Of a stretch of 10,418 nt of DNA, positions 1 to 10,418 are shown in pieces (positions within the stretch are counted from its first letter, which is position 1; every line of letters starts with the position of its first letter). The position numbers were made by a program, and so were the translations under genes. Below the pieces are notes generated by a model. The model saw only the letters and a program-made list of their open reading frames with translations, had not been told where the DNA came from and searched no databases. This DNA is from Promethearchaeota archaeon (GTDB taxonomy: Archaea > Asgardarchaeota > Lokiarchaeia > Sigyniarchaeales > SOKP01): assembly GCA_048941265.1 (NCBI GenBank), contig JBHLNT010000151.1:1-10418 (forward strand), in the 5' to 3' direction.

Positions 1-163
1 GTCATATGGAAAAGGTGTAAATTTTAATTATAAATTTTTGTCTCCATATTATAAAAGCCATATTAGGAACATCATTATACTTTGAATCATTATTTCTTTA
101 ATTAATTTAAATCTTAAAAGAAATATTTGAAATATTAAATTAAAATTGATTTCATAACTGTTC

Positions 164-955
164 ATGATGACATTTAATAATATTGAAAAATTAAAAGAGG
201 AAAATACCATAAAAATTCGTCAATTTTTTTTAGATTACCTAGATAGAGTAAATTACAAAGGGACTTTCGGAGTTGCGAAATTTTCATCCGTTTATAATGA
301 TTTAATGCCCGTACAGCAAGATAACGTTAAAAATAAACTTAAAGAACGATTCCTTGACTTTATGAATACTGGCTCTATTATTTCTATAGGTATTTTTTAC
401 GCTCCTGATATTATAGACTGTATAAATGTCAATAGGAATGATATAATTGATTTAAATCGTTGGAATCTTTATAGTGATGAATATCAGCACATAAATGACA
501 TGCTCAAAGTAATTAGCAAAAATATTGCAGACGAGTTTAATGGAATAGCTTATACTCCTACAACTGGAACACCTTCAGAACAAATTAAGAACGTGAAAGA
601 TTATTATTATAAAACTATTTCCCATCGTCTTGTCGCAGAATATGCTGGTGTTGGTTGGCGAGGCAAAAGTGAATTAATCATTACTGAAGAAAAAGGACCT
701 ACAATACGATTTACATCTATTCTTATCAACATTCCAATGATTCAAGGATTAAAATTAGAGAGCAAATGTGGGGAATGCACCGCATGCCTCGAAGTTTGCC
801 CTATTTTAAAAAATAAAGAATTTCTTGAAGATTACAGAGAAAACTGCAGAAAATTTCTTATTAACTTAGGACTAAAACATGAAGTATGTGGAAAATGTAT
901 AAAAGCTTGCTTTCGTGAAAGTATATATAAGAGAAATTTTAAGGCAAAACTCTAA
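164..955 (+). CDS. Epoxyqueuosine reductase (QueG)/reductive dehalogenase superfamily 4Fe-4S protein, probably cobalamin-binding; substrate unknown
   Basis: 263-aa ORF containing SHRLVAEYAGVGWRGKSELIITEEKGPTIRFTSIL, which resembles the QueG/RdhA 'A..AG.G..G...L.I....G...R...I' signature. It is followed by CGECTACLEVCP and C...CGKCIKAC Fe-S motifs. The start could be ATG 164 or ATG 167. Confidence 0.75.
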   Translation: MMTFNNIEKLKEENTIKIRQFFLDYLDRVNYKGTFGVAKFSSVYNDLMPVQQDNVKNKLKERFLDFMNTGSIISIGIFYAPDIIDCINVNRNDIIDLNRWNLYSDEYQHINDMLKVISKNIADEFNGIAYTPTTGTPSEQIKNVKDYYYKTISHRLVAEYAGVGWRGKSELIITEEKGPTIRFTSILINIPMIQGLKLESKCGECTACLEVCPILKNKEFLEDYRENCRKFLINLGLKHEVCGKCIKACFRESIYKRNFKAKL

Positions 956-984
956 TAATTTATCAGTCAAAAAAATATAGAAAA

Positions 985-1070
985 GTTCAGTTTTTTAATA
1001 ATATATAGCCAAAATATATAAGAAAAAAAAAAAGAAAAATTCAATTTTTAATTTTCACACTTTTTTTGTT
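985..1070. terminator. Probable bidirectional archaeal oligo-T terminator region between convergent genes
   Basis: There are T-runs on the + strand (about 991-997 and 1060-1067) after the 955 stop. An A11 run at 1023-1033 reads as T11 on the - strand after the cdc48 stop. Confidence 0.45.
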
Positions 1071-1076
1071 AAAAAT

Positions 1077-3356
1077 TTATCGATATAATTCTTCTGAGGG
1101 CTCTTCCAAGCTTTCAGTATACGATTTTTTAGCTCTTTCAGCACTTTGCTTAATTTTTTCAATAGCCTTTTCAAATTCATTATTTGATATTTTGACTTCT
1201 CTGAAAGATTCAGGAACCATCTTATCTATTTTATAATCATAAATACCTTTTCTAATTGCTAATAATGTAGCTTCCTCGCAAATCGCCGCTATATCTGCCC
1301 CTGCAAAACCCTCTAGTCTTTCTGCAAGTTTCTCAGTATTAACATCTTCATCGATCGGTCGACCTTTCAGATGAATCGTGAAGATTTGAATACGTGAATT
1401 TTTATTTGGCAATGGCACCTCTACATGTCTACCAAATCTACCTGAGCGTAGTAAAGCAGGATCTAGTAAGTCAGGTCTATTGGTTGCGGCTAATAAAACA
1501 ACATTTCTCAATTCTTCCAAACCATCCATTTCGGTTAATAATTGCGCGACGACCTGTTCATTGACCCGAGAATTAGAGCTATCACTTCGTTTTGCTGCTA
1601 TGGCGTCTATTTCATCAAAGAAAATAATACATGGTGCTGCTGATCGCGCTTTACGAAAGATTTCTCTTATAGCTTTAGCGCTTTCACCCACCCATTTAGA
1701 CATTAACTCCGGTCCTTTTATTGAAATAAAATTTACTTCAGTTTCATGAGCTACTGCTTTTGCCATTAATGTTTTCCCCGTTCCAGGTAATCCAAATAGT
1801 AATATTCCATTTGGAGGTCTTGATTTCATATAATTATAAAATTTTGAGTATTTTAACGGCCATTCAATGATCTCTCTAAGTTGCTGTTTTGCATCTTCTA
1901 GACCGCCAACATCATCCCAAGTTTCACTAGGTTTAGTTATAAATACTTCTCTTAGGGCTGAGGGTTCTATTCCAGTCAATGCATCTAAGAAATGAATCAT
2001 TTTAATCTTTAAATTCTGCAAAATTTCTTGAGGAATTGGAGCATCAAGATTAACCAGGGGGATTATCTCCCTAATAGAAAGCATGGCTGCTTCTTTAGCT
2101 AGTGCTTGAATATCAGCACCTACAAATCCATGTGTTTTTTCAGCAAGCAATTGCAAATTAACATCTTTAGCAAGAGGCATACCCCGTGTGTGAATTAATA
2201 AAATTTCATACCGACCATTTATATCAGGAACGCTTATTTCGATTTCACGATCGAATCTGCCCGGTCTTCTCAAAGCAATATCAATATTATTAATCTTATT
2301 TGTAGCCCCAATTATAATTACTTCTCCTCTTCCTTCTAAACCATCCATTAAAGAAAGTAATTGAGCGACAATCCGAGATTCAACTTGAGTTTTTCCTTCA
2401 TCTCGTTTAGGAGCAATTGAATCTAACTCATCAAGAAAGATGATTGATGGTGCTTTTTCTTTAGCTTCTTCAAAAATTTTTCTTAAATTTTCTTCACTTT
2501 GACCGAAAAATTTGCTCATAATTTCTGGACCACTTATAGAAATGAAATGAGCATCAGTCTCATAAGCAACTGCTCTAGCTAGTAATGTCTTTCCTGTTCC
2601 TGGAGGACCGTGAAGTAATACTCCTTTCGGAGGATTTATTCCAATTTTTTCAAATAATTCCGGATGTCTGATGGGTAATTCTATCATTTCCCTTATTTTT
2701 TGAATTTCTGATTCTAGACCTCCAATATCTTCATATGAGATTCTCGTAGCAATCTTATGCATTTCCTTTTCTAAATCGCCAATTGCTTCGTATTTCACTT
2801 TAGCTTTTTCCTTTAATAAAAAATCTTCAACTTTTTCATCAGTTAACTTTATTTTAGTATCTAAGGTAATTCTAACAGCATCAGCTTTAGGAGTGTAATC
2901 CACGATAACGAGATCAATTCTTCGTCCCATAGCATAAAAACTTAAACTGTCGCCTTTAGTAATTATTCTCTTTTCCAATTTTATTGCTAATTGTTGAGTA
3001 TCTCGGATCAGAAATGATTCATCTAGTCCGGCGAATGTAATACTTTCTGCAGGACTAGAGGTAATTTTTCGAATTTCTACATAATCATCAATCGACGCAC
3101 TTATATTTCTTCTCTCTGATGGATCCATCCTTATTACTTTGGTTCCTTTATCTTCTACTTTTCCAGGAGATAACAATGCAGCTGTTTTCTTATTTGAATT
3201 AGGATGAGATATTTCTAAAACATCATTCACTTTAAATCCAAATTTATTAATGATGTCAGGATCCAATCTAATGATTCCCTTTCCCGCATCTTCCTTAAAT
3301 GCGTCTTTTATCCTTAAATTAATTATTCCTTTAGTTCTGTTTTCTTTCTCATCCAT
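1077..3356 (-). CDS. cdc48: CDC48/VCP/p97 family AAA+ ATPase (N domain plus D1 and D2)
   Basis: N-domain motif DAFKEDAGKGIIRLD. D1 has YEDIGGL, GPPGTGKT, IIFLDELD and ALRRPGRFDREI. D2 has WDDVGGL, GLPGTGKT, IIFFDEID and ALLRSGRFGR. The C-terminus is an HbYX motif (LYR). The ORF track starts at GTG 3368, but that codon overlaps the GAGGTG RBS (3368-3373), so ATG at 3356 (759 aa) is preferred. Confidence 0.96.
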   Translation of the reverse strand: MDEKENRTKGIINLRIKDAFKEDAGKGIIRLDPDIINKFGFKVNDVLEISHPNSNKKTAALLSPGKVEDKGTKVIRMDPSERRNISASIDDYVEIRKITSSPAESITFAGLDESFLIRDTQQLAIKLEKRIITKGDSLSFYAMGRRIDLVIVDYTPKADAVRITLDTKIKLTDEKVEDFLLKEKAKVKYEAIGDLEKEMHKIATRISYEDIGGLESEIQKIREMIELPIRHPELFEKIGINPPKGVLLHGPPGTGKTLLARAVAYETDAHFISISGPEIMSKFFGQSEENLRKIFEEAKEKAPSIIFLDELDSIAPKRDEGKTQVESRIVAQLLSLMDGLEGRGEVIIIGATNKINNIDIALRRPGRFDREIEISVPDINGRYEILLIHTRGMPLAKDVNLQLLAEKTHGFVGADIQALAKEAAMLSIREIIPLVNLDAPIPQEILQNLKIKMIHFLDALTGIEPSALREVFITKPSETWDDVGGLEDAKQQLREIIEWPLKYSKFYNYMKSRPPNGILLFGLPGTGKTLMAKAVAHETEVNFISIKGPELMSKWVGESAKAIREIFRKARSAAPCIIFFDEIDAIAAKRSDSSNSRVNEQVVAQLLTEMDGLEELRNVVLLAATNRPDLLDPALLRSGRFGRHVEVPLPNKNSRIQIFTIHLKGRPIDEDVNTEKLAERLEGFAGADIAAICEEATLLAIRKGIYDYKIDKMVPESFREVKISNNEFEKAIEKIKQSAERAKKSYTESLEEPSEELYR

Positions 3357-3453
3357 TTTTTCAATCACACCTCTTATTTTCTTTTATTCTTCATTAAAAT
3401 TAAATAAAATACATTTTAGATTGATTCTGTGAATTAATCCTATGATCCTAATT

Positions 3454-3464
3454 AAAAAAAAAAA
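3454..3464 (-). terminator. Possible oligo-T (T11) terminator downstream of mtd
   Basis: A11 on the + strand, about 20 nt past the mtd stop codon. Confidence 0.35.
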
Positions 3465-3483
3465 TTTATTGTTTTTTTTAATT

Positions 3484-4473
3484 TTATTCTTTAAAAAGCA
3501 GTTTCTTCGCTACTTCAAAAGCATAATTATAATCAAAAACCTTTAAACCCTTACAATTTGCGGCTTCTTTAAGTATTTGTCCCTCAGAATTTGATTTAAG
3601 CTGGCCTAGAGCCATAGCGCCAATACCAAAAATTCCTGGATATATTTCTTCATTTTTATGTTTAGGTTTTAGACCCTCTATTCCGTAGGGTGGTACTAAA
3701 TTTATATCTACAACAATTTTTTTACCTTTAAGCCTTTGCATTAAATCTTCTGAAAGAATCTCAACACCCGCAGCAGCTAACGACCAAATTATATCTGCGT
3801 CTTTAGCAATTTCAAATCTTTCCTCTGGATCTGGAGCAAAAACTCCCTTAATTTCCCCAGCTTCTTTTCCGGCTTCTTCTGTTAATTCTTTTGCGAGGTT
3901 TTCGATAAAATTTTTGCTTGATTGTTCCCAAGTTTCAATTAAAAAAGTATTGCAATTAATTTTTGCCGCCAAAATTGCTGCAATTCTCCCTACAGGTCCC
4001 GCACCAAATACCACTACTTTTTTTCCTCTCAAATTTTTTATTCCATGCTTTTTATCGGCAATATGCATGGTCATTGCAACCACAGCGGATGCTGTTGTAT
4101 GAGATCCACGAGGATCTATAATCACAGGGCATTCAAAAGGGGTAACTAATGAGTTTATCACCTTTTTAGCAATACTTTCACCCTCTTTTACATTGGACCC
4201 TCCTATGAAAAATGTAGTAGCAGCACCCGGTTTCCGAGAAAAAATAGCATCTTGAACTAGCTTAGGAACTTGATCTGCTGTCATTTTACTAATAGGCACT
4301 ACAATATCAAAACCCGCATCATAGGCCATATTTATATCGAAAGGTGAAGCATTATCATCTGTATCAAAGAAATAACATATTTTATCTGACTTCTCTACCT
4401 TTTTTATTTTAATTGGTGTTAATTCTATTATGGTTTTTCTTCCTAATATTTTTTCTACTTCACTTCTTTGCAT
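3484..4473 (-). CDS. mtdB: NAD(P)-dependent methylene-tetrahydromethanopterin (or methylene-H4F) dehydrogenase, MtdA/MtdB family, with an N-terminal extension of about 30 aa
   Basis: Motifs SPFDINMAYDAGFD, LVQDAIFSR, DPRGSHTTASA, Rossmann VVVFGAGPVG, DINLVPPYGIEG and GIGAMALG..K match the Mtd family. An RBS-like GGAGTTGA lies upstream. The MtdA versus MtdB assignment is uncertain. Confidence 0.85.
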   Translation of the reverse strand: MQRSEVEKILGRKTIIELTPIKIKKVEKSDKICYFFDTDDNASPFDINMAYDAGFDIVVPISKMTADQVPKLVQDAIFSRKPGAATTFFIGGSNVKEGESIAKKVINSLVTPFECPVIIDPRGSHTTASAVVAMTMHIADKKHGIKNLRGKKVVVFGAGPVGRIAAILAAKINCNTFLIETWEQSSKNFIENLAKELTEEAGKEAGEIKGVFAPDPEERFEIAKDADIIWSLAAAGVEILSEDLMQRLKGKKIVVDINLVPPYGIEGLKPKHKNEEIYPGIFGIGAMALGQLKSNSEGQILKEAANCKGLKVFDYNYAFEVAKKLLFKE

Positions 4474-4534
4474 ATTTTATCAACTCCAATAACTTTTTTT
4501 TAAATTATTTAAATTTTAATAAAAAAAATCCTTT

Positions 4535-5260
4535 TTATTTCTCAGGAATTTCAATTTCAATCTCATCTTCTTGTTCCTTCTCCACTTCTTTAATAGTTCT
4601 CTTGATTTTTATCTGTTCAGTTTCTACACCTAATTCATTTGCTAATTTATCAAGGCCATTAAAATGTCTAAGATCACAGATAAATAGTCCTTTTAATTTT
4701 TTACCGTTGACATCCCTTGCAAGATTTAGTATATTCATCATCATCCATGCTTCACGTACTTTATGTCTTACTTCATCTTCCTGCTCTTCATAATCTCGAT
4801 GTAAATATTCTTTCCATAAAATTAATTGCTGGAAAAATTCATCATTTTCAGGAACTCCGCCTTTTTTTTCTATCATTTCTCTGATCCTTATCTCGAGCTT
4901 TTTTATACTTTCTCTATGGTCATCTAAGGCAACTGACAAATAATCGCTCGCATTTTCCGAAATATCCCCAAGTTTGAATGGAATATTTTTTTCTTTAAAT
5001 AATTTTATCAATGGATCATTAGGGTTAAGCGTATCATCTCTCATACCTTTCTCTTCCATAGCGAAATCAGGGTGATATTTCTCTATTAAATCTTCAATTA
5101 GGCCCAGATATTCCTTGGAAATTAGGTGTAAATTCCAGATAAGGTCTTCTTTAGCTTTCTTTGGAGCTTCAAACCACCATTCAACTGGAAATTCACTTTC
5201 AACCATTATTAATTTCAAATGCTGTTTCTTTAAAGGCTCTAATTCTAAAACTTCAGGCAT
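4535..5260 (-). CDS. Uncharacterised protein (241 aa), possible TraB/PrgY/Tiki-like alpha/beta fold with a helical insertion; paralog of 5286..5903
   Basis: Full ORF with AGGAGG RBS. Motifs IEKYHPDFAMEE, VREAWM and LFICDLRHFNGL are reminiscent of TraB-family 'PDxVxVE', 'RxxxM' and 'VVGxxHxxGI'. It has an acidic C-terminal tail. The fold call is by eye only. Confidence 0.7.
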   Translation of the reverse strand: MPEVLELEPLKKQHLKLIMVESEFPVEWWFEAPKKAKEDLIWNLHLISKEYLGLIEDLIEKYHPDFAMEEKGMRDDTLNPNDPLIKLFKEKNIPFKLGDISENASDYLSVALDDHRESIKKLEIRIREMIEKKGGVPENDEFFQQLILWKEYLHRDYEEQEDEVRHKVREAWMMMNILNLARDVNGKKLKGLFICDLRHFNGLDKLANELGVETEQIKIKRTIKEVEKEQEDEIEIEIPEK

Positions 5261-5285
5261 TTTTATTATCCCTCCTTTTTTTATT

Positions 5286-5903
5286 TTAAAATATTATATT
5301 TTTAATTGTATGTTTTTTATTATATTGAATAACTTTAACATTATATTCTCTTAAATACTCAACAACTTGTGAACAGATATCTTCACATATATCTGTTTGA
5401 ACAAAATGAACAAAATTGACATCATCTTCTTGAAAATTTTTCGCGAGATCCAACATCTTTTTCACGATCCACATAGGTCTAATCTTAAGAGTAAGATGAT
5501 TTTCTTTTTCTTGAATTTCAATATTTATCAAATCTATCCAATTTTTTAGACTTTGACCCTTATATGAATCCCTATCTTCCAAATTTACATATTCTTCAGT
5601 TAAACCTGTGAGCAACTCCTCCTTTTCCATAATTTCCTCATAAAGATACCCCATTGCATATTCCGGAATATCTACTTGATAATATTTAATTCCCAATTTA
5701 TCTAATGCCTTAGCAAACGGGGTCCTGCTGAAATCTTTAAGATCTATATCAAAGTCAACCGTAACAAAATTAATTTTGTTATTACTTAGAAAATTTTTTA
5801 ATAAATCTGGATCAGTACTTTGAAGACTCTTACTATTTTCCTTCGCGAATATAAAAGCTGTGACTTTTTTATTTTTTATTGGTTTAATTTCTAAAACTTC
5901 CAT
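5286..5903 (-). CDS. Uncharacterised protein (205 aa), paralog of the flanking 241-aa and 74-aa proteins
   Basis: Full ORF co-oriented in the cluster, with an RBS-like GAGTTGA and visible sequence similarity to both neighbours. Confidence 0.75.
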   Translation of the reverse strand: MEVLEIKPIKNKKVTAFIFAKENSKSLQSTDPDLLKNFLSNNKINFVTVDFDIDLKDFSRTPFAKALDKLGIKYYQVDIPEYAMGYLYEEIMEKEELLTGLTEEYVNLEDRDSYKGQSLKNWIDLINIEIQEKENHLTLKIRPMWIVKKMLDLAKNFQEDDVNFVHFVQTDICEDICSQVVEYLREYNVKVIQYNKKHTIKNIIF

Positions 5904-5965
5904 TTTTTCATCAACTCTTTTTTAATCTTGAATTTTTTAATTATAATAAAAAATTAAAATAAATT

Positions 5966-6190
5966 TTAAACCTCAGATCTCAGGTTGTCTATTAGCACTT
6001 CAAGATATTGAGCGTTGAATGATTCTTTATCAGTTATCTCGTTATATGCTTTTTCAAATCCTCTTAATCTTTCCATCTTTTCTGATCGTTCATATTCAAA
6101 ATAGGCGGTTGCATATTCAACCCAAAAATCTTCATCAGTCATTTTTTCTTCTTTATTCATAAACTCCATCTTAACTTCAGTCACTTCCAT
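5966..6190 (-). CDS. Small acidic helical protein (74 aa), stand-alone homolog of residues 81-130 of the 205-aa protein
   Basis: GAGGTG RBS 7 nt upstream of the ATG. An ungapped manual alignment with the downstream protein gives 18/50 identities. Confidence 0.8.
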   Translation of the reverse strand: MEVTEVKMEFMNKEEKMTDEDFWVEYATAYFEYERSEKMERLRGFEKAYNEITDKESFNAQYLEVLIDNLRSEV

Positions 6191-6301
6191 TTACAAACAC
6201 CTCTTTTTTTAGTAATTTTTACAATTTTTTTTTATTAGTATCCTAAGATTATATTCAAATAGTCGGATTATAAAGAATTTGATAAGAAAAATTTTAGTCT
6301 T

Positions 6302-6323
6302 TTTGACAAATATTTTTGTCAAA
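6302..6323. promoter_or_regulatory. Perfect palindrome TTTGACAAA-N4-TTTGTCAAA, candidate transcription-factor operator
   Basis: 9-bp perfect inverted arms in the divergent intergenic region. Degenerate copies with identical spacing occur at 6332-6351, 6410-6429 and 6570-6589. Confidence 0.6.
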
Positions 6324-6501
6324 TCGATATTTTAACAAAATAAATTATCAAGATTTTGCATAGCTTTAAACATGTCTTAAGGATATTGGTTAAAATTGTC
6401 ATTCATGACATGAAAACTTTTTTTGTCAAAATATTTGATAAAACTAACCTTTTTTAAATCATATTAGAAATAATATCCTTGAGTTATGTGAAATATTAAT
6501 G

Positions 6502-6527
6502 ACTTTCGAAGATGGATTTTCGAAAGT
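6502..6527. repeat. Inverted repeat ACTTTCGAA-N8-TTCGAAAGT
   Basis: 9-bp perfect arms read directly from the sequence. Confidence 0.6.
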
Positions 6528-6547
6528 TGATCAAACAATTTTTATTC

Positions 6548-6631
6548 TTGATAGAAATATTTATAAATCTCGACAACAATTATTGTCATGTCGAAAAGAA
6601 AAATTGTTAAATTAGTCATATTTATTATCAA
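6548..6631. promoter_or_regulatory. Phased array of degenerate TTGACA-N8-TGTCAA boxes upstream of the HTH-hdrA gene
   Basis: TTGATA-N8-TATAAA (6548), TCGACA-N8-TGTCAT (6570), TCGAAA-N8-TGTTAA (6591) and TTAGTC-N8-TATCAA (6612), spaced 21-22 bp apart. Confidence 0.45.
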
Positions 6632-6675
6632 GATCCTAAATATTAAAAATTTAAAAATATGGTGGAGATGATGTT

Positions 6676-9234
6676 ATGTTGGATATATATTCAATCTTAT
6701 CTCATCCTTTTAGAAGAAAAATCCTTTTGCTCCTGGAAAAAGAAGGGTATATTCCATATACAGATTTGATGGAAAAGTTGGGTCTTGAAACAACGGGACA
6801 ATTAAATTTCCACCTAAAAAAAGTTGGTAGTTTAGTTAACAAGGATCAAAAATCATATTTTCTTACGGAAGATGGAAAACGGATCTTAAAAATCATTAGG
6901 ATTAATAAGAGAATTTTAGAGGGAGAGGATATTAATGAATATTTAGAATCTAAGGGGAGTGAGATAAGTCGTGTTGGTGTTATTGTATGTAACTGTAATA
7001 CAGAAATATCAAAAGCGATTAACATCGATCTTCTTGAAAATTATCTAACTAAATTAAAGAATGTAGTTTCCGTTAGAGTATTTGATAATTTATGCCAAAC
7101 AAAGAATTTTGACAAGATTTCAAAATGGGTCAAAGAGAATTTTTTAAATAAAATCGTTATAGCAGCATGCTCTCCAAAAACCCATCAGATTCTCTTTGAA
7201 AGAATTTTTCAAGATGTAATTGATCGTGCTAATATTGAAATCGCTAATATTAGAGAACAATGTGCTTGGGTGCATTATTATAACGCTGATCCTAAGCAAA
7301 TAGATCCTTACCTTATCTTAGATAAAGCAAAATTATTAATTGAGGCTGCTATTGCGCGCGTAATTCTTCAAAAAGAAGTGAAAATTAAACGTGTTGAGAT
7401 AGAGAAAAGCTGTGCTGTTCTTGGAGGAGGCATTGCTGGTATGACTTTAGCTTTAAATTTAGCTAGAGCAGGGATAAAAGTATTTCTAATTGAGAAATCT
7501 CCTACTTTGGGCGGTAAAGTAGCTAGGTGGAATCGAATTTATAAAATGGGAGATTGTTCTATTTGTTTCATATCAGAATTAATAGCAGAGATTGTTAAAG
7601 AAAAGAATATTAAAGTTTTTACTAATACAGAAATAGAAAATGTATCTGGAGAAGTTGGGAACTTCACACTTGATTTAGTAAAAAAACCGAGATTTATAGA
7701 CGAACGAAAATGTACTGGCTGCAAACAGTGCCTTGAAGTATGCAATATAGAAAAATCCGATCAGTATGAGTTTGGTTTAAAGAATAGAAAAATTATATAC
7801 ATTCCTTTTATACATTCTTTTCCATATGTGCCTTTAATTGATGAAAGTGATATTAAAAATTGCCTTAATTGTAGGATATGTGAAAGGGCTTGTGTGAATA
7901 AAGCTATAGATCTGAATCAAGTTCCAGAAAATATAAAAATTAAAGTTGGGACAAAAGTTATCGCTATTGGTGCTGATCTTACCTCTAATTTAGAAGAATT
8001 TGGTTATAATCCGCAAGATGATATTATTACTTCTGCTGAATTTGAGCGAATTTTATCTTCAGATGGCATTACCGAAGGAAATTTGGTAAAACTTTCTGAT
8101 AGAGAACCACCAAAATCAATTTCAATAGTTCAGTGTGCAGGTAATTCTGATTTTCATTCGAAATTTAAAGATGCCATTGTATTAAAATATATAGATAGTA
8201 TTACAGGGAGGTTGCCTCAATGTGAAATTAATGTCTTTTATGATTTAAACAAATTCAAAAAAGATAAAGCTTTTTTCCTGACACCTATGGATAAAAGATT
8301 TCATTACGCGCAAAAATTAAAAATTATTGGAAAAAACAACAAAAAATATGTCATTGCAGATTCACAAGAATATCCTAGTGATATGATAATCCTAAATATA
8401 GATCTTATTCCAAATACTGATTTAAAAAATCTACGTACAATAATGGATTTTTCCTTAAACGATGATGGATTCATGAGCGAAGAAACATTAGGATCTGGGA
8501 TTTATGGCATTGGAACTATTTTGGGTCCTCTTGATTATCATAAAACGGTTTCTACTGCAAACAATGTGGCATTAAAAGTGATATCTTTACTTTCTCAAGA
8601 ATATTTAATAGCAGAATTTACCGGAATTGAAATTAATGAGGATAAATGCGGTTTATGTGGCTTATGCATGCAATCTTGCCCTTATAACGCAATTGTTATA
8701 GGAAATGAAAGAATAAATGTTGATAAATTTAAATGCAAAGGGTGTGGTACTTGTGTGAGTGTTTGTCCTACTAATGCGATTGAAATGAATGTTGACACTT
8801 CTGAGAAAATACTTAAAACGATTGAAATATTATCGAAATCGAAAAGAACTCCAAAAATAGTGGCATTCTGCTGTAAATCCTGTGGATATGCAGCCGCAGA
8901 TGATGCTGGATTTAAAAAACTCCATTATGATCCAAATATCTTTATTATAAGAGTCCCTTGTACCGGAAGGGTGGACACAAACTTTATTATTAAAGCTATT
9001 GAGTTTGGTTTTGATGGAGTCATGATAATTGGATGTAGAAGGAATGCATGCAGGTATATTGATGGAGTAGAAAAAGTAGAAAAAAAAATTCAATTATTAA
9101 GGGAAATTTTAGGCCCCAAATATGGCAATCGCATTATTCTCAAACACATGAATGCTGTTGAGGGGAATAAGTTTGCAGAAGTTATAAATGAATTTTATAA
9201 TCAATTGGCCGAGGAGGTAAAATTTGAAGCTTAA
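6676..9234 (+). CDS. hdrA: Fusion protein: ArsR-like winged HTH, HdrA-like flavo-iron-sulfur domain (heterodisulfide reductase subunit A) and C-terminal MvhD (hydrogenase delta, [2Fe-2S])
   Basis: Residues 1 to about 80 read LSHPFRRKILLLL...YTDLMEKLGLETTGQLNFHLKKV...YFLTEDG (wHTH). HdrA motifs: RVGVIVCNC, AACSP, NIREQCAWVH, GGGIAG, EKSPTLGG, DCSIC and EFERIL, plus four CxxCxxCxxxC ferredoxin motifs. MvhD motifs: FCCKSCGYAAAD, RVPCTGRVD and DGVMIIGCRRNACRY. RBS GGTGGAG at 6661-6667. Confidence 0.92.
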   Translation: MLDIYSILSHPFRRKILLLLEKEGYIPYTDLMEKLGLETTGQLNFHLKKVGSLVNKDQKSYFLTEDGKRILKIIRINKRILEGEDINEYLESKGSEISRVGVIVCNCNTEISKAINIDLLENYLTKLKNVVSVRVFDNLCQTKNFDKISKWVKENFLNKIVIAACSPKTHQILFERIFQDVIDRANIEIANIREQCAWVHYYNADPKQIDPYLILDKAKLLIEAAIARVILQKEVKIKRVEIEKSCAVLGGGIAGMTLALNLARAGIKVFLIEKSPTLGGKVARWNRIYKMGDCSICFISELIAEIVKEKNIKVFTNTEIENVSGEVGNFTLDLVKKPRFIDERKCTGCKQCLEVCNIEKSDQYEFGLKNRKIIYIPFIHSFPYVPLIDESDIKNCLNCRICERACVNKAIDLNQVPENIKIKVGTKVIAIGADLTSNLEEFGYNPQDDIITSAEFERILSSDGITEGNLVKLSDREPPKSISIVQCAGNSDFHSKFKDAIVLKYIDSITGRLPQCEINVFYDLNKFKKDKAFFLTPMDKRFHYAQKLKIIGKNNKKYVIADSQEYPSDMIILNIDLIPNTDLKNLRTIMDFSLNDDGFMSEETLGSGIYGIGTILGPLDYHKTVSTANNVALKVISLLSQEYLIAEFTGIEINEDKCGLCGLCMQSCPYNAIVIGNERINVDKFKCKGCGTCVSVCPTNAIEMNVDTSEKILKTIEILSKSKRTPKIVAFCCKSCGYAAADDAGFKKLHYDPNIFIIRVPCTGRVDTNFIIKAIEFGFDGVMIIGCRRNACRYIDGVEKVEKKIQLLREILGPKYGNRIILKHMNAVEGNKFAEVINEFYNQLAEEVKFEA

Positions 9235-9982
9235 GTTTTCAATTATTTCTTTAACTGGATGTAGTGGATGTATATCTACATTAATTTCACTTGATATTTT
9301 CCCTCAATTTTTAGAAAGGACTGAAATTTTATATTTTCCATTTATTAATGACACGAGAAAAGTTGAGAATTGTGATGTAGCATTAATAGAGGGATGTATT
9401 TCGGAAAAAAGTGAAATTAATTTTCTTAAAAATATAAGAAAGTCCGCAAAAAAAGTTTATGCCTTAGGTTCTTGTGCAGCTTATGGGGGAATCTTAAGCC
9501 TTTCAGATAAAATTAATGCAGAACCGATTTCAAATTTTATAGAGATAGATGGGTTAATTCCTGGTTGCCCAATCCCATCTAAATTACTCGGGAATTGCTT
9601 AATTAAATTAATCGAAAATAAAGAGATAGAATTATCCGAAAGAAATCTGTGTGCAACATGCCCTTTTAATGGAACCTTAGATTTAGATTTTAAAACAAAA
9701 GTAATTAAATATTATCCATCCCAAGATGAGATTTTAACTCCTGAAGAAAATTCAAATTGTTTTTTGAAGCGAGGAATTCTGTGTTTCGGTCCCATTACCC
9801 GAGATGGATGTGAACAAAGATGTATTTCACAGGGAATTCCCTGTGAGGGGTGTATGGGCCCTGTTTCAAAAGATTATTTTGCTAATATGATTAATTATCT
9901 AAGTTTAATAAAGCTTTCAGAGGAATTAAGAAGATATAAAGGAATTTTTTATCGATTTTCAAAACCAAAACTTAATTGGTGA
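9224..9982 (+). CDS. mvhG: [NiFe]-hydrogenase small subunit, group 3 (MvhG/VhuG-like)
   Basis: Motifs LTGCSGC, EG, GSCAAYGGI, IPGCP, CATCP and CFL..G.LCFGPITRDGC...C......CEGCMGP. No Tat signal. TTG start with GAGGAGGT RBS at 9211-9218, overlapping the upstream gene by 11 nt. Confidence 0.88.
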   Translation: MKLKFSIISLTGCSGCISTLISLDIFPQFLERTEILYFPFINDTRKVENCDVALIEGCISEKSEINFLKNIRKSAKKVYALGSCAAYGGILSLSDKINAEPISNFIEIDGLIPGCPIPSKLLGNCLIKLIENKEIELSERNLCATCPFNGTLDLDFKTKVIKYYPSQDEILTPEENSNCFLKRGILCFGPITRDGCEQRCISQGIPCEGCMGPVSKDYFANMINYLSLIKLSEELRRYKGIFYRFSKPKLNW

Positions 9983-9987
9983 TCGTA

Positions 9988-10418
9988 ATGCTAAAAGTTG
10001 TTGAAGTATGCTCTCGGGTTGAAGGACATGGTAATATGAATTTATATATTAATAATCAAAATGATGAAATTTCACATGTTGATTTTGAAATTAGAGCTTA
10101 TCGAGGATTTGAAGATATTTTAATCGGTAAAAAATTGATTGATATCCCTAAAATCACATCAAGAATATGTGGATTATGTCATGCCTCCCAATCCATCGTT
10201 AGTTGTAAAACTATAGAATCTATTTACGATGTTGTGCCATCAGAACGTTCAGTTCTTTTAAGAAGACTATTATTAGCAGGAGAATTGATAAAATCGCATA
10301 GTTTGCATTTCTTTTTTCAATCTTTTCCGGATTTATTGAAGATCTTTAATATTAAGCAGAAAATTCCGTCTCTTTATGAATTAATAAATTATAATCCCCA
10401 ATTAACAACAAATTTTTA
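9988..10418 (+). CDS. mvhA: [NiFe]-hydrogenase large subunit, group 3 (MvhA-like), 5' part; runs off the window end and is not in the ORF track
   Basis: Manual translation from ATG 9988 gives MLKVVEVCSRVEGHGNMNLYINNQNDEISHVDFEIRAYRGFEDILIGKKLIDIPKITSRICGLCHASQSIVSCKTIE...LIKSHSLHFFFQSFPD. It contains RVEGHG, RGFE, the L1 RICGxC and SHxLH motifs, with GGTGAT RBS upstream. The frame is open to the end of the window. Confidence 0.92.
   Translation, partial: MLKVVEVCSRVEGHGNMNLYINNQNDEISHVDFEIRAYRGFEDILIGKKLIDIPKITSRICGLCHASQSIVSCKTIESIYDVVPSERSVLLRRLLLAGELIKSHSLHFFFQSFPDLLKIFNIKQKIPSLYELINYNPQLTTNF

Follow-up and report, generated by a model that had tools for sequence, protein, structure and literature searches.

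A winged-helix domain fused to the HdrA-MvhD flavoprotein of Asgard archaea, and a conserved palindrome that it may bind

Why would an HdrA protein, the flavoprotein of a hydrogenase module, carry a winged helix of the DNA-binding type at its N-terminus, and what would such a domain read? The question is raised by a contig of 10,418 nucleotides (nt) from a Promethearchaeota archaeon (NCBI GenBank assembly GCA_048941265.1, contig JBHLNT010000151.1, positions 1 to 10,418 of the forward strand; hereafter the window), in which an ArsR-like winged helix-turn-helix (wHTH) domain, HdrA and MvhD share one open reading frame (ORF). Asgard hydrogen metabolism is central to models of the origin of the eukaryotic cell, and to our knowledge almost nothing is known about its regulation. 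We confirmed at the sequence level that the wHTH is fused in frame to HdrA-MvhD and that this fusion is conserved across Asgard families and is not an artefact. A 20-base-pair (bp) palindrome recurs in front of the fusion gene and of a divergent operon, and we consider it probable, at about 0.6, that the fusion protein is a trigger enzyme that regulates its own operon and this partner operon in a sequence-specific manner. The fusion gene, its parts and the genes that follow it are:

6661..6667, + strand: Shine-Dalgarno-like box GGTGGAG, 8 nt 5' of the ATG at 6676, before the wHTH start
6676..9234, + strand: wHTH-HdrA-MvhD fusion gene, 852 amino acids (aa), no stop or frameshift; start possibly the TTG at 6679
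6676..6921, + strand: ArsR-like wHTH domain, residues 1-82 (Pfam DUF7347, PDB profile, structure model)
6922..6969, + strand: linker, residues 83-98; weak conservation, low model confidence
6970..8829, + strand: HdrA proper, residues 99-718 (homology to solved HdrA)
8842..9210, + strand: MvhD domain, residues 723-845 (Pfam FlpD, solved MvhD)
9224..9982, + strand: mvhG-like [NiFe] hydrogenase small subunit (Pfam Oxidored_q6)
9976..10416, + strand: mvhA-like [NiFe] hydrogenase large subunit (Pfam NiFeSe_Hases), running off the window

The first-pass annotation of this DNA had read about 95 residues in front of the usual HdrA start, a ribosome-binding site ahead of the HTH and three signature motifs within it, and each of these readings holds: RVGVIVCNC begins at R99 with the frame open throughout, GGTGGAG is present at 6661-6667, and LSHPFRRKIL (residues 8-17), GQLNFHLKK (41-49) and YFLTEDG (61-67) are all found. 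Solved HdrA chains align only from residue 96-99, so the N-terminal ~95-98 residues are extra. The proposed architecture was recovered by the Pfam library, which assigns DUF7347, then flavin adenine dinucleotide (FAD) and ferredoxin domains, then FlpD/MvhD in the one ORF. Reads had been expected to span the junction of a true fusion. Positions 6900-6970 are bridged free of gaps by contigs of three public runs (X1, 6604-7154; X2, 6886-7154; X4, 6378-7130), which belong to a single study and may include the source sample; in run X3 the junction is covered only by short pieces. More than 100 independent assemblies, from several sources, have the frame open, and so do closed chromosomes (L060, L077). 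An internal HdrA start, which had been named as a way for the fusion to fail, was not found upstream of codon 199 after codon 34: the window ORF has no in-frame ATG, GTG or TTG between codons 35 and 199 and the N-terminal cluster domain begins at C105, which together exclude a separate HdrA without the wHTH. As for the true start, the contig of run X1 has AAA in place of the ATG at 6676-6678 and orthologues begin at the position of codon 2 (TTG, 6679), so translation may start at 6679 rather than 6676. A purine box (GGAGG- or GGGAG-like) lies 5-10 nt before the aligned start in most of the 31 orthologous loci listed. The linker was also inspected for remains of a former HdrA start: the purine-rich AAGGGGAGTGA at 6952-6962 is Shine-Dalgarno-like, but a Met at this place is found in no orthologue and the candidate was rejected.

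A word-indexed protein search gave 2027 matches at E ≤0.001 among 8000 scored candidates. Homologues keep the HTH, as a genuine fusion had been said to demand: PF24038 is present on 111 of the best 120, which are 816-855 aa long with 65-88% identity and 96-100% query coverage, and the fusion orthologues are conserved as proteins of 843-855 aa. Their sources are labelled Promethearchaeota, Lokiarchaeota, Thorarchaeota, Hodarchaeota, Hermodarchaeota or Odinarchaeota. The other 9 of the best 120, without a called PF24038, measure 793-821 aa, and the one of 793 aa is labelled partial. In two genomes with a call about 30 aa shorter (Met32 start), the wHTH codons are intact behind an ATA start. Here the orthologue appears to begin with ATA (L018 and L019, from genomes G057 and G109); in L019 a TAA stop stands directly 5' of the ATA and a GAGGGGA box lies 7-8 nt upstream. 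With an ATA start in these two loci, gene callers begin at Met32 and remove wHTH helix 1. The short homologues are thus probably start-site miscalls, which would explain eight of the nine.

A six-frame search across the phylum found HdrA-like genes in 190 of 201 genomes. The full-length fusion, defined by a match from query residue 1-3, is present in at least 45 of the 201 Asgard genomes at identities down to 36%, distributed over five families (30 genomes in f1, 3 in f19, 4 in f16, 6 in f12 and 2 in f7). In the same genomes, HdrA paralogues free of the domain begin at query residue ~97-99; one of them lies on contig C20 of the window's own genome. The order hdrA - mvhG - mvhA is common to loci of the five families. 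A profile search with the wHTH, over proteins clustered at 50%, returned four clusters of full-length wHTH-HdrA-MvhD proteins (P0024, P0127, P0133, P0151) and two further proteins, P0173 (781 aa) and P0123 (530 aa), with DUF7347 and ferredoxin or FAD domains and no MvhD match, which are probably partial. Relatives are also encoded by 116 stretches of species-representative genomes, and 78 of the best 80 carry labels of Asgard lineages or uncultured archaea, including Helarchaeota and Jordarchaeia; all 80 come from metagenome-assembled genomes. The other two contigs (L108, L118) carry the fusion gene, with 69% identity in the wHTH, in bins labelled bacteria (Nanopelagicaceae, Deferrimicrobium); these contigs are most likely mis-binned.

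The enzyme part of the fusion appears intact. HdrA proper is ordered as an N-terminal 4-Cys domain, a FAD domain, an inserted ferredoxin domain and a C-terminal ferredoxin domain. FAD/NAD-binding models (NAD_binding_8, Pyr_redox_2 and related ones) match residues 234-327, where G250, G252 and G255 of the GxGxxG motif are invariant in 25 sequences, and Pfam ferredoxin models match residues 345-408 and 651-704. The same 25 sequences share the cysteines C105, C107, C140 and C165, C294 and C297, C346/349/352/356 and C396/399/402/406, followed by C658/661/664/668 and C687/690/693/697, the expected ligands of the N-terminal cluster and of the inserted and C-terminal ferredoxin domains; their division among individual clusters is presumably that of the solved HdrA structures. 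Against these structures, phmmer gave E 2.9e-112 to 8rvu_a (query 96-718 versus chain 10-651), 5.6e-108 to 5odc_A and 6e-96 to 7bkb_A. The NCBIfam HdrA2 model (NF040770) aligns with residues 99-846 from model position 1 and scores 592.5 bits, below its cut-off of 1100, and the HdrA models NF041778 and NF041891 score 376-425 bits, below cut-offs of 1300-1400; the protein is thus an HdrA homologue but no named coenzyme B-coenzyme M (CoB-CoM) heterodisulfide reductase equivalog. The MvhD part matches Pfam FlpD/MvhD (PF02662) over residues 728-845 at 122.9 bits (cut-off 22.3) and solved MvhD 5odc_D over residues 723-844/845 at E 6e-25, and the cysteines C733, C736, C762, C787 and C792 of its predicted [2Fe-2S] site are invariant in the 25 sequences. 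Neither hdrB nor hdrC turned up among the genes of the window and of the annotated neighbouring loci, to which the search was confined. With mvhG starting at a TTG (9224), hdrA and mvhG share 11 nt, and with mvhA starting at a TTG (9976), mvhG and mvhA share 7 nt; these overlaps fit translational coupling of the three genes.

What kind of domain is the N-terminal extension? Pfam DUF7347 (PF24038) matches residues 3-74 at 40.9 bits (cut-off 27.6), and HTH_24 gives 20.6 bits, under its cut-off of 21.9. The closest PDB profile match is 1y0u, an archaeal ArsR-like repressor (E 5e-6), followed by PagR, and the closest other DUF7347 proteins are tandem ArsR/HTH_20 proteins. The domain is homologous to the ArsR/SmtB repressors, yet outside their curated sequence family. 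In an AlphaFold model of residues 1-98 (mean predicted local distance difference test, pLDDT, 87.7) the ArsR-type fold order is present, with helices at 4-9, 11-23, 28-35 and 40-53, the last being the predicted recognition helix, a wing at 54-63 (strands 54-57 and 60-63) and a helix at 65-81. The neighbours listed by Foldseek are all transcription factors or DNA-binding proteins (CadC, ArsR, NolR-DNA, YodB, QsrR-DNA, PagR and MarR-type), at template-modelling (TM) scores of 0.39-0.68 with every E 2.6e-3 or weaker; CadC, ArsR, NolR, PagR and AntR among them reach TM 0.5-0.63 and a probability of 1.00 at E ~3e-3 or weaker.

Conservation points the same way. Over 18 orthologues, mean pairwise identity is 0.57 in the wHTH and 0.35 in the linker (residues 81-98), and 0.53, 0.51, 0.53 and 0.53 in the HdrA N-domain, FAD domain, ferredoxin domain and MvhD. 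The residues invariant in the wHTH are Y5, H10, R13, L17, G41, N44, H46, L47, K49, K56, Y61, L63 and G67, and they concentrate in the recognition helix and wing (G41, N44, H46, L47, K49, K56, Y61, L63). Its net charge lies between +1 and +8 in 18/18 orthologues. The domain thus looks to be under selection as a DNA binder. The first-pass annotation had called it free of Cys, correctly: there are 0 Cys in residues 1-82 of 18/18 orthologues, and the domain lacks a metal- or thiol-sensing site. The full-length model (pLDDT 84.9; ~84 in the wHTH, below 50 at residues 83-95, ~90 in the body) fits a folded wHTH on a flexible tether. A two-copy prediction of residues 1-98 scored 0.62 against 0.03 for the best of three controls; the mark set for a pair, which it passed, was attained by 20 of 30 proteins solved as homodimers and by 1 of 23 solved as single chains. 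It came with contact agreement of at least 67% and partner pLDDT of at least 86 across runs; the score may reflect likeness to solved ArsR dimers instead of binding. The predicted interface is ArsR-style (residues 1-9, 14 and 69-90) and leaves the recognition helix 40-53 free.

The candidate operator is the 20-bp palindrome TTGACAA-N6-TTGTCAA, present in four copies in the 485-bp intergenic region upstream of hdrA, between the start of the divergent ORF (6190) and the fusion gene. Bits and ranks below are those of a matrix that was derived from other genomes only (17 orthologous loci) and scanned over the window's genome:

6303..6322, no strand assigned: candidate operator S1, TTGACAAATATTTTTGTCAA, perfect; 26.6 bits, rank 1
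6332..6351, no strand assigned: candidate operator S2, two mismatches; 15.8 bits, rank 15
6410..6429, no strand assigned: candidate operator S3, two mismatches; 19.5 bits, rank 2; 107 bp from S1
6560..6567, + strand: TATA-box-like TTTATAAA, read in the sequence; putative hdrA promoter
6570..6589, no strand assigned: candidate operator S4, TCGACAACAATTATTGTCAT, two mismatches; 18.0 bits, rank 7

Located 106 nt upstream of the ATG, S4 starts 2 nt past TTTATAAA. Apart from S1, the 5.01-Mb genome has no perfect N6-spaced copy, and four of the 50 sites with at most two mismatches in that whole genome fall in the 485-bp region. By the matrix, S1, S3, S4 and S2 take ranks 1, 2, 7 and 15 genome-wide, the best site elsewhere scoring 18.8 bits; of the other 12 matches in the top 16, nine lie inside ORFs, and no top-16 site is on the contig of the HTH-free paralogue.

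The palindrome recurs in front of the fusion gene in other genomes. The 31 orthologous loci hold 26 sites with at most two mismatches in 12.4 kb of upstream sequence versus 18 in 240 kb elsewhere, 17 of the loci having at least one, and shuffled upstream regions gave a mean of 0.15 sites and a maximum of 2 in 200 trials. A site of at least 15 bits lies within 500 nt upstream in 53 of 79 loci and within the first 1400 nt of coding sequence in 0 of 79, a count that is not independent, many of these loci being related to the matrix training loci. Four further families have orthologous upstream sites at -58 to -161: a perfect one at -97 in f19 (24-25 bits), one at -141 in f7 (18 bits), one at -58 in f12 (17-21 bits), and that of f16, to which we return. 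The position relative to the promoter is also shared, with an ATTTATA(A/T)A box directly 5' of the palindrome in the window and in L009, L039 and L010; in L040 and L024 the palindrome comes after GATTTTTATTT. Among ten fusion genomes searched for sites with at most one mismatch, six have them within ~300 nt upstream (G138, G144, G171, G028, G064, G047). In a subgroup that lacks a proximal site, four loci carry sites farther away, at -1301 to -1490; in one of these genomes, G192, the distal sites precede an FrhB-like gene of the same orientation, the end of which is 90 nt from the fusion gene, so that the operator there heads a longer transcription unit.

The same intergenic region serves a second, divergent operon, on the reverse strand of the window:

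3484..6190, - strand: partner operon, divergent from hdrA
5966-6190, - strand: 74-aa ORF
5286-5903, - strand: 205-aa ORF
4535-5260, - strand: 241-aa ORF
3484-4473, - strand: 329-aa ORF with Mpt_N and NAD-binding domains

The 241-aa and 329-aa ORFs match the two halves of methylene-tetrahydromethanopterin-dehydrogenase-like (Mtd-like) proteins of 559-565 aa in relatives. Because many genomes of the family show this split as well (~241 + ~331 aa), it is probably genuine and no error. A single protein of 559-565 aa occurs in G147, G177, G049, Jordarchaeia and others. The 205-aa ORF is a paralogue of the 241-aa ORF, and both are paralogous to the first 230 residues of the long Mtd-like proteins; no Pfam family matched either. 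The structure-based look-alikes of the 205-aa protein are TraB/GumN-like folds (TM ~0.55, a lead only) and the Mtd-like N-domain, not DNA binders, and at E up to 1 no HTH family was found in the conserved neighbour proteins.

Upstream of the 205-aa/Mtd-like operon, a pair of sites 106-108 bp apart is found in the window and in G138, G177, G132, G049, G156, G195, G192 and G099, and in G144 a 20.4-bit site and a one-mismatch site form a 109-bp pair; the loci with paired sites (L041, L049, L042, L134-L140) come from several genera. This conserved spacing of about ten helical turns suggests DNA looping or cooperative binding. The pair stays with the partner operon even at a distance of 9-13 kb from hdrA, or when the two are on different contigs. 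In G132 and G177 the sites are 9.4 kb from hdrA, directly upstream of an operon for proteins of 209 and 559 aa, homologues respectively of the 205-aa ORF and of the 241-aa plus 329-aa ORFs of the window, and sites are likewise found upstream of the Mtd-like operon in G049, G156, G195, G192 and G144.

Fusion, Mtd-like gene and palindrome also come and go together. An Mtd-like gene (Mpt_N plus NAD-binding) is present in 61 of 201 genomes: in 44 of the 45 with a full-length fusion and in 17 of the 156 others, and the completeness of G050, the only fusion genome without a match, is 69%. Families f12 and f7 have the gene behind mvhA in the same orientation, probably co-transcribed with it, and in f1 and f19 it is divergent or displaced. 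Within genus g32, the closed genome G038 and the 97% complete G070 lack the fusion, the Mtd-like gene and a perfect palindrome, and G028, G064 and G047 have fusion, Mtd-like gene and palindrome. Of ten Mtd-like loci in genomes where no fusion had been detected, eight lack any site of at least 11 bits; the G159 locus has one weak site, of 11.6 bits and within an ORF, and strong sites, four of them, occur at the G099 locus only. G099, where fusion and operon-type MvhA were not found at first and all three one-mismatch sites lie on one contig, was examined as a counter-example of sites without a fusion and rejected as such: its contig ends 13 codons into a wHTH gene, MDIYAILSHPFRR, behind a ribosome-binding site. 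With this fusion start at the contig end, the sites had predicted the hidden gene.

Altogether, these results suggest two roles for one protein. In the first, it would serve as the HdrA-MvhD flavoprotein/iron-sulfur subunit of an Mvh-type [NiFe] hydrogenase module, a role to which the invariance of the checked Cys ligands and of GxGxxG, and the position of mvhG and mvhA next in the operon, all point. In the second, it would be a sequence-specific DNA-binding regulator by way of its N-terminal ArsR-like winged helix. HdrA is dimeric in solved complexes, and an HdrA dimer would present two wHTH domains reading one palindrome; these would pair in ArsR/SmtB fashion through their N-terminal residues and helix 65-90 and read TTGACAA-N6-TTGTCAA with recognition helix 40-53 and the wing. 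Binding at S4 would repress the hdrA-mvhDGA operon: a site abutting an archaeal TATA box is a repressor position, from which polymerase recruitment is blocked. The S1/S3 pair, ten helical turns apart, would control the Mtd-like operon, possibly through a DNA loop. Because the wHTH itself lacks sensor residues, DNA binding would most likely be switched by the enzyme body, either through the redox state of the FAD/Fe-S chain, as in PutA, or through assembly of the hydrogenase complex. The earlier suggestion that sensory input comes from the fused redox domains is compatible with the Cys-free wHTH and the invariant cofactor ligands of HdrA and MvhD. Two stronger versions are more tentative: a true redox switch of DNA binding is possible but doubtful, and we would hesitate to the same degree over an electron-bifurcating, hydrogenase-coupled flavoprotein that is itself H2/redox sensor and transcription factor, the poise of its FAD and Fe-S centres setting operator occupancy.

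The case for DNA binding is carried mainly by the conserved palindrome and its link to the divergent Mtd-like operon; the first-pass annotation had the wHTH fusion, which stands, and neither of these two. We infer binding of the palindrome by the fusion wHTH, the sign of the regulation and its signal alike, and several observations weigh against this trigger-enzyme reading. No result ties the palindrome to the fusion wHTH rather than to a regulator encoded elsewhere, and the phyletic pattern cannot tell which protein binds, because wHTH, 205-aa gene and operator share their gains and losses. The half-site centres are ~13 bp apart, a distance unreconciled with an ArsR-type dimer, and the NCBIfam model HTH_metalloreg (ArsR/SmtB) gives the domain 23 bits under a cut-off of 55. 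The counts are softened by relatedness, among the 79 loci as noted and in the co-occurrence figures, where related genomes are non-independent samples. In f16 the site, at -139 to -152, is weak (13-16 bits), and at the fusion loci of G041, G058 and G008 there is no site with at most one mismatch. Perfect palindromes also occur in two listed fusion-free genomes (G178, G036), and a palindrome with at most one mismatch occurs in 138 of the 201 genomes, where the reversed control is often similar. It is the positions of the sites, not whole-genome counts, that are informative.

Could the wHTH instead hold proteins together? It may be a structural or protein-protein adaptor that docks MvhA/G, the Mtd-like protein or another partner, or that stabilises the HdrA dimer, the palindrome then serving a separate factor. 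Winged helices are often reused for protein contacts. The nearest precedent, which also tells against the trigger-enzyme reading, is BamF, an MvhD-like adaptor in an HdrA-like bifurcating complex, which is reported to use a wHTH as its interface with BamI (bioRxiv 10.64898/2026.04.10.717634). The predicted self-association of the domain equally fits a plain dimerisation role, the unexplained 74-, 205- and 241-aa proteins of the module could be its partners, and the link of the domain to DNA is a prediction. Against this, recognition helix and wing are the most invariant parts and lie outside the predicted dimer interface; the domain is net basic in every one of the 18 orthologues; and in the model it is joined by a variable, low-confidence linker and would not be packed on the body. 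The adaptor role also has to accommodate a locus-specific palindrome that co-occurs with the fusion and predicted the hidden gene of G099, and it needs a second regulator of equal distribution. We regard it as unlikely, and as the alternative to be taken most seriously.

A smaller chance still, and an improbable one, goes to a wHTH that binds DNA without redox control, whether in constitutive autoregulation by the free subunit (dosage balance) or in tethering to the nucleoid. No result connects redox state to the domain, which has no sensor residues; a flexible linker would permit DNA binding independent of the body; and feedback by a surplus subunit requires no allostery. The operators stand also at a second operon that does not encode the fusion protein, however, which argues for more than dosage autoregulation, and nucleoid tethering would need no rare, locus-specific palindrome. 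Finally, that the fusion is an artefact of misassembly, of a missed stop or frameshift or of an internal HdrA start, the wHTH being a separate small regulator gene, would agree with the nine listed homologues called without the domain, but is refuted, as far as sequence data reach, by the frame open in over a hundred assemblies and closed chromosomes, the lack of in-frame starts at codons 35-199, the bridging contigs of three runs and the wHTH left intact behind ATA in both short-call genomes.

How does the protein preferred here, a trigger enzyme, compare with known systems? HdrA-MvhD fusions and enzyme-regulator fusions are both known already. The HdrA2-type HdrA-MvhD proteins (NF040770; 5odc, 7bkb, 8rvu) have the same HdrA and MvhD domains, ligands and mvhG/mvhA neighbourhood, and the ~98 extra N-terminal winged-helix residues are found only in the window protein; the companion here is an Mtd-like gene, with no hdrB or hdrC in the loci examined. 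The ArsR/SmtB repressors (1y0u of Archaeoglobus fulgidus, CadC 1u2w, NolR-DNA 4omy) share the fold order, the predicted wHTH dimer would use like surfaces, and a palindromic candidate operator overlaps the promoter of the fusion gene; the repressors stand alone, whereas the window wHTH, filed as DUF7347, is covalently joined to a 750-residue redox enzyme. The trigger enzymes PutA and RbkR likewise combine enzyme and DNA-binding domain in one polypeptide, as the window protein appears to do with an intact enzyme and a DNA-binding-type domain, and its predicted targets, like theirs, are its own operon and functionally linked genes. PutA would be the closest working analogue: it is a flavoenzyme in which the redox state of FAD controls DNA binding, through a ribbon-helix-helix domain where the fusion protein has a winged helix. 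SurR of Thermococcales is an ArsR-like, redox-switched regulator of hydrogenase operons with a CxxC sensor in its own wHTH. It is likewise an archaeal winged helix that controls hydrogenase genes via short promoter-near palindromes; SurR is a stand-alone protein with CxxC, while the window wHTH is Cys-free and part of a hydrogenase-associated flavoprotein. An archaeal precedent for a wHTH-enzyme regulator is RbkR, in which the enzyme is reported to be a kinase (PMC5397151). BamF is reported to have its wHTH in an MvhD-like subunit, where it contacts BamI and no operator is involved; the window wHTH is N-terminal to HdrA, on a variable linker, and comes with a palindrome at its promoters.

We found no published description, outside subscription journals, of a DNA-binding domain on HdrA, on a hydrogenase subunit or on an electron-bifurcating flavoprotein. 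A survey of archaeal fusions reports Asgard HdrA-HdrA-MvhD fusions, and the word 'helix' does not occur in the portion of it at hand (PMC11237513). In public databases the fusion proteins bear the generic names 'FAD-dependent oxidoreductase' and 'hydrogenase iron-sulfur subunit'. If the trigger-enzyme reading is true, this would be the first HdrA found with its own DNA-binding domain, and a very large, cofactor-rich archaeal addition to the few enzymes that control genes themselves; if the protein is also a redox sensor, Asgard archaea would need no separate sensor to couple hydrogen to one-carbon metabolism through transcription. The predicted regulon is testable: a 20-bp operator, four sites in the window, a pair spaced by ~107 bp and two target operons. 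The Mvh-HdrA module is moreover tied, in 44 of 45 genomes, to an Mtd-like enzyme, a hint that the archaeal Wood-Ljungdahl pathway may include a hydrogen-dependent step not yet described.

Further observations concern the surroundings of the module. A second, split HdrA-like pair often adjoins it (for example L039 2502-4346, - strand, and L049 1072-2811, + strand), consisting of a 101-136-aa FAD-binding N-part and a 472-aa ferredoxin-rich part; this pair shares operator-bearing intergenic regions, and genes for ferredoxin, free MvhD and an FrhB-like protein lie near it. The window's own genome holds weak relatives of the wHTH at C225:14909-15154, C190:16402-16662, C1:9870-10115, C65:43408-43611 and C207:1416-1583, with 27-36% identity at E 1e-5 to 0.3, inside frames of 274-961 aa (one with an internal stop); winged helices of this type may be fused to further proteins in this organism. 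Elsewhere in the window, a 263-aa ORF at 164-955 (+ strand) has only a weak C-terminal 4Fe-4S motif, its Pfam matches all being below cut-off. At 1077-3368 (- strand), beside the Mtd-like gene, a clear CDC48/VCP-type double AAA ATPase of 763 aa is encoded, and G171 has a 776-aa ORF at the equivalent position.

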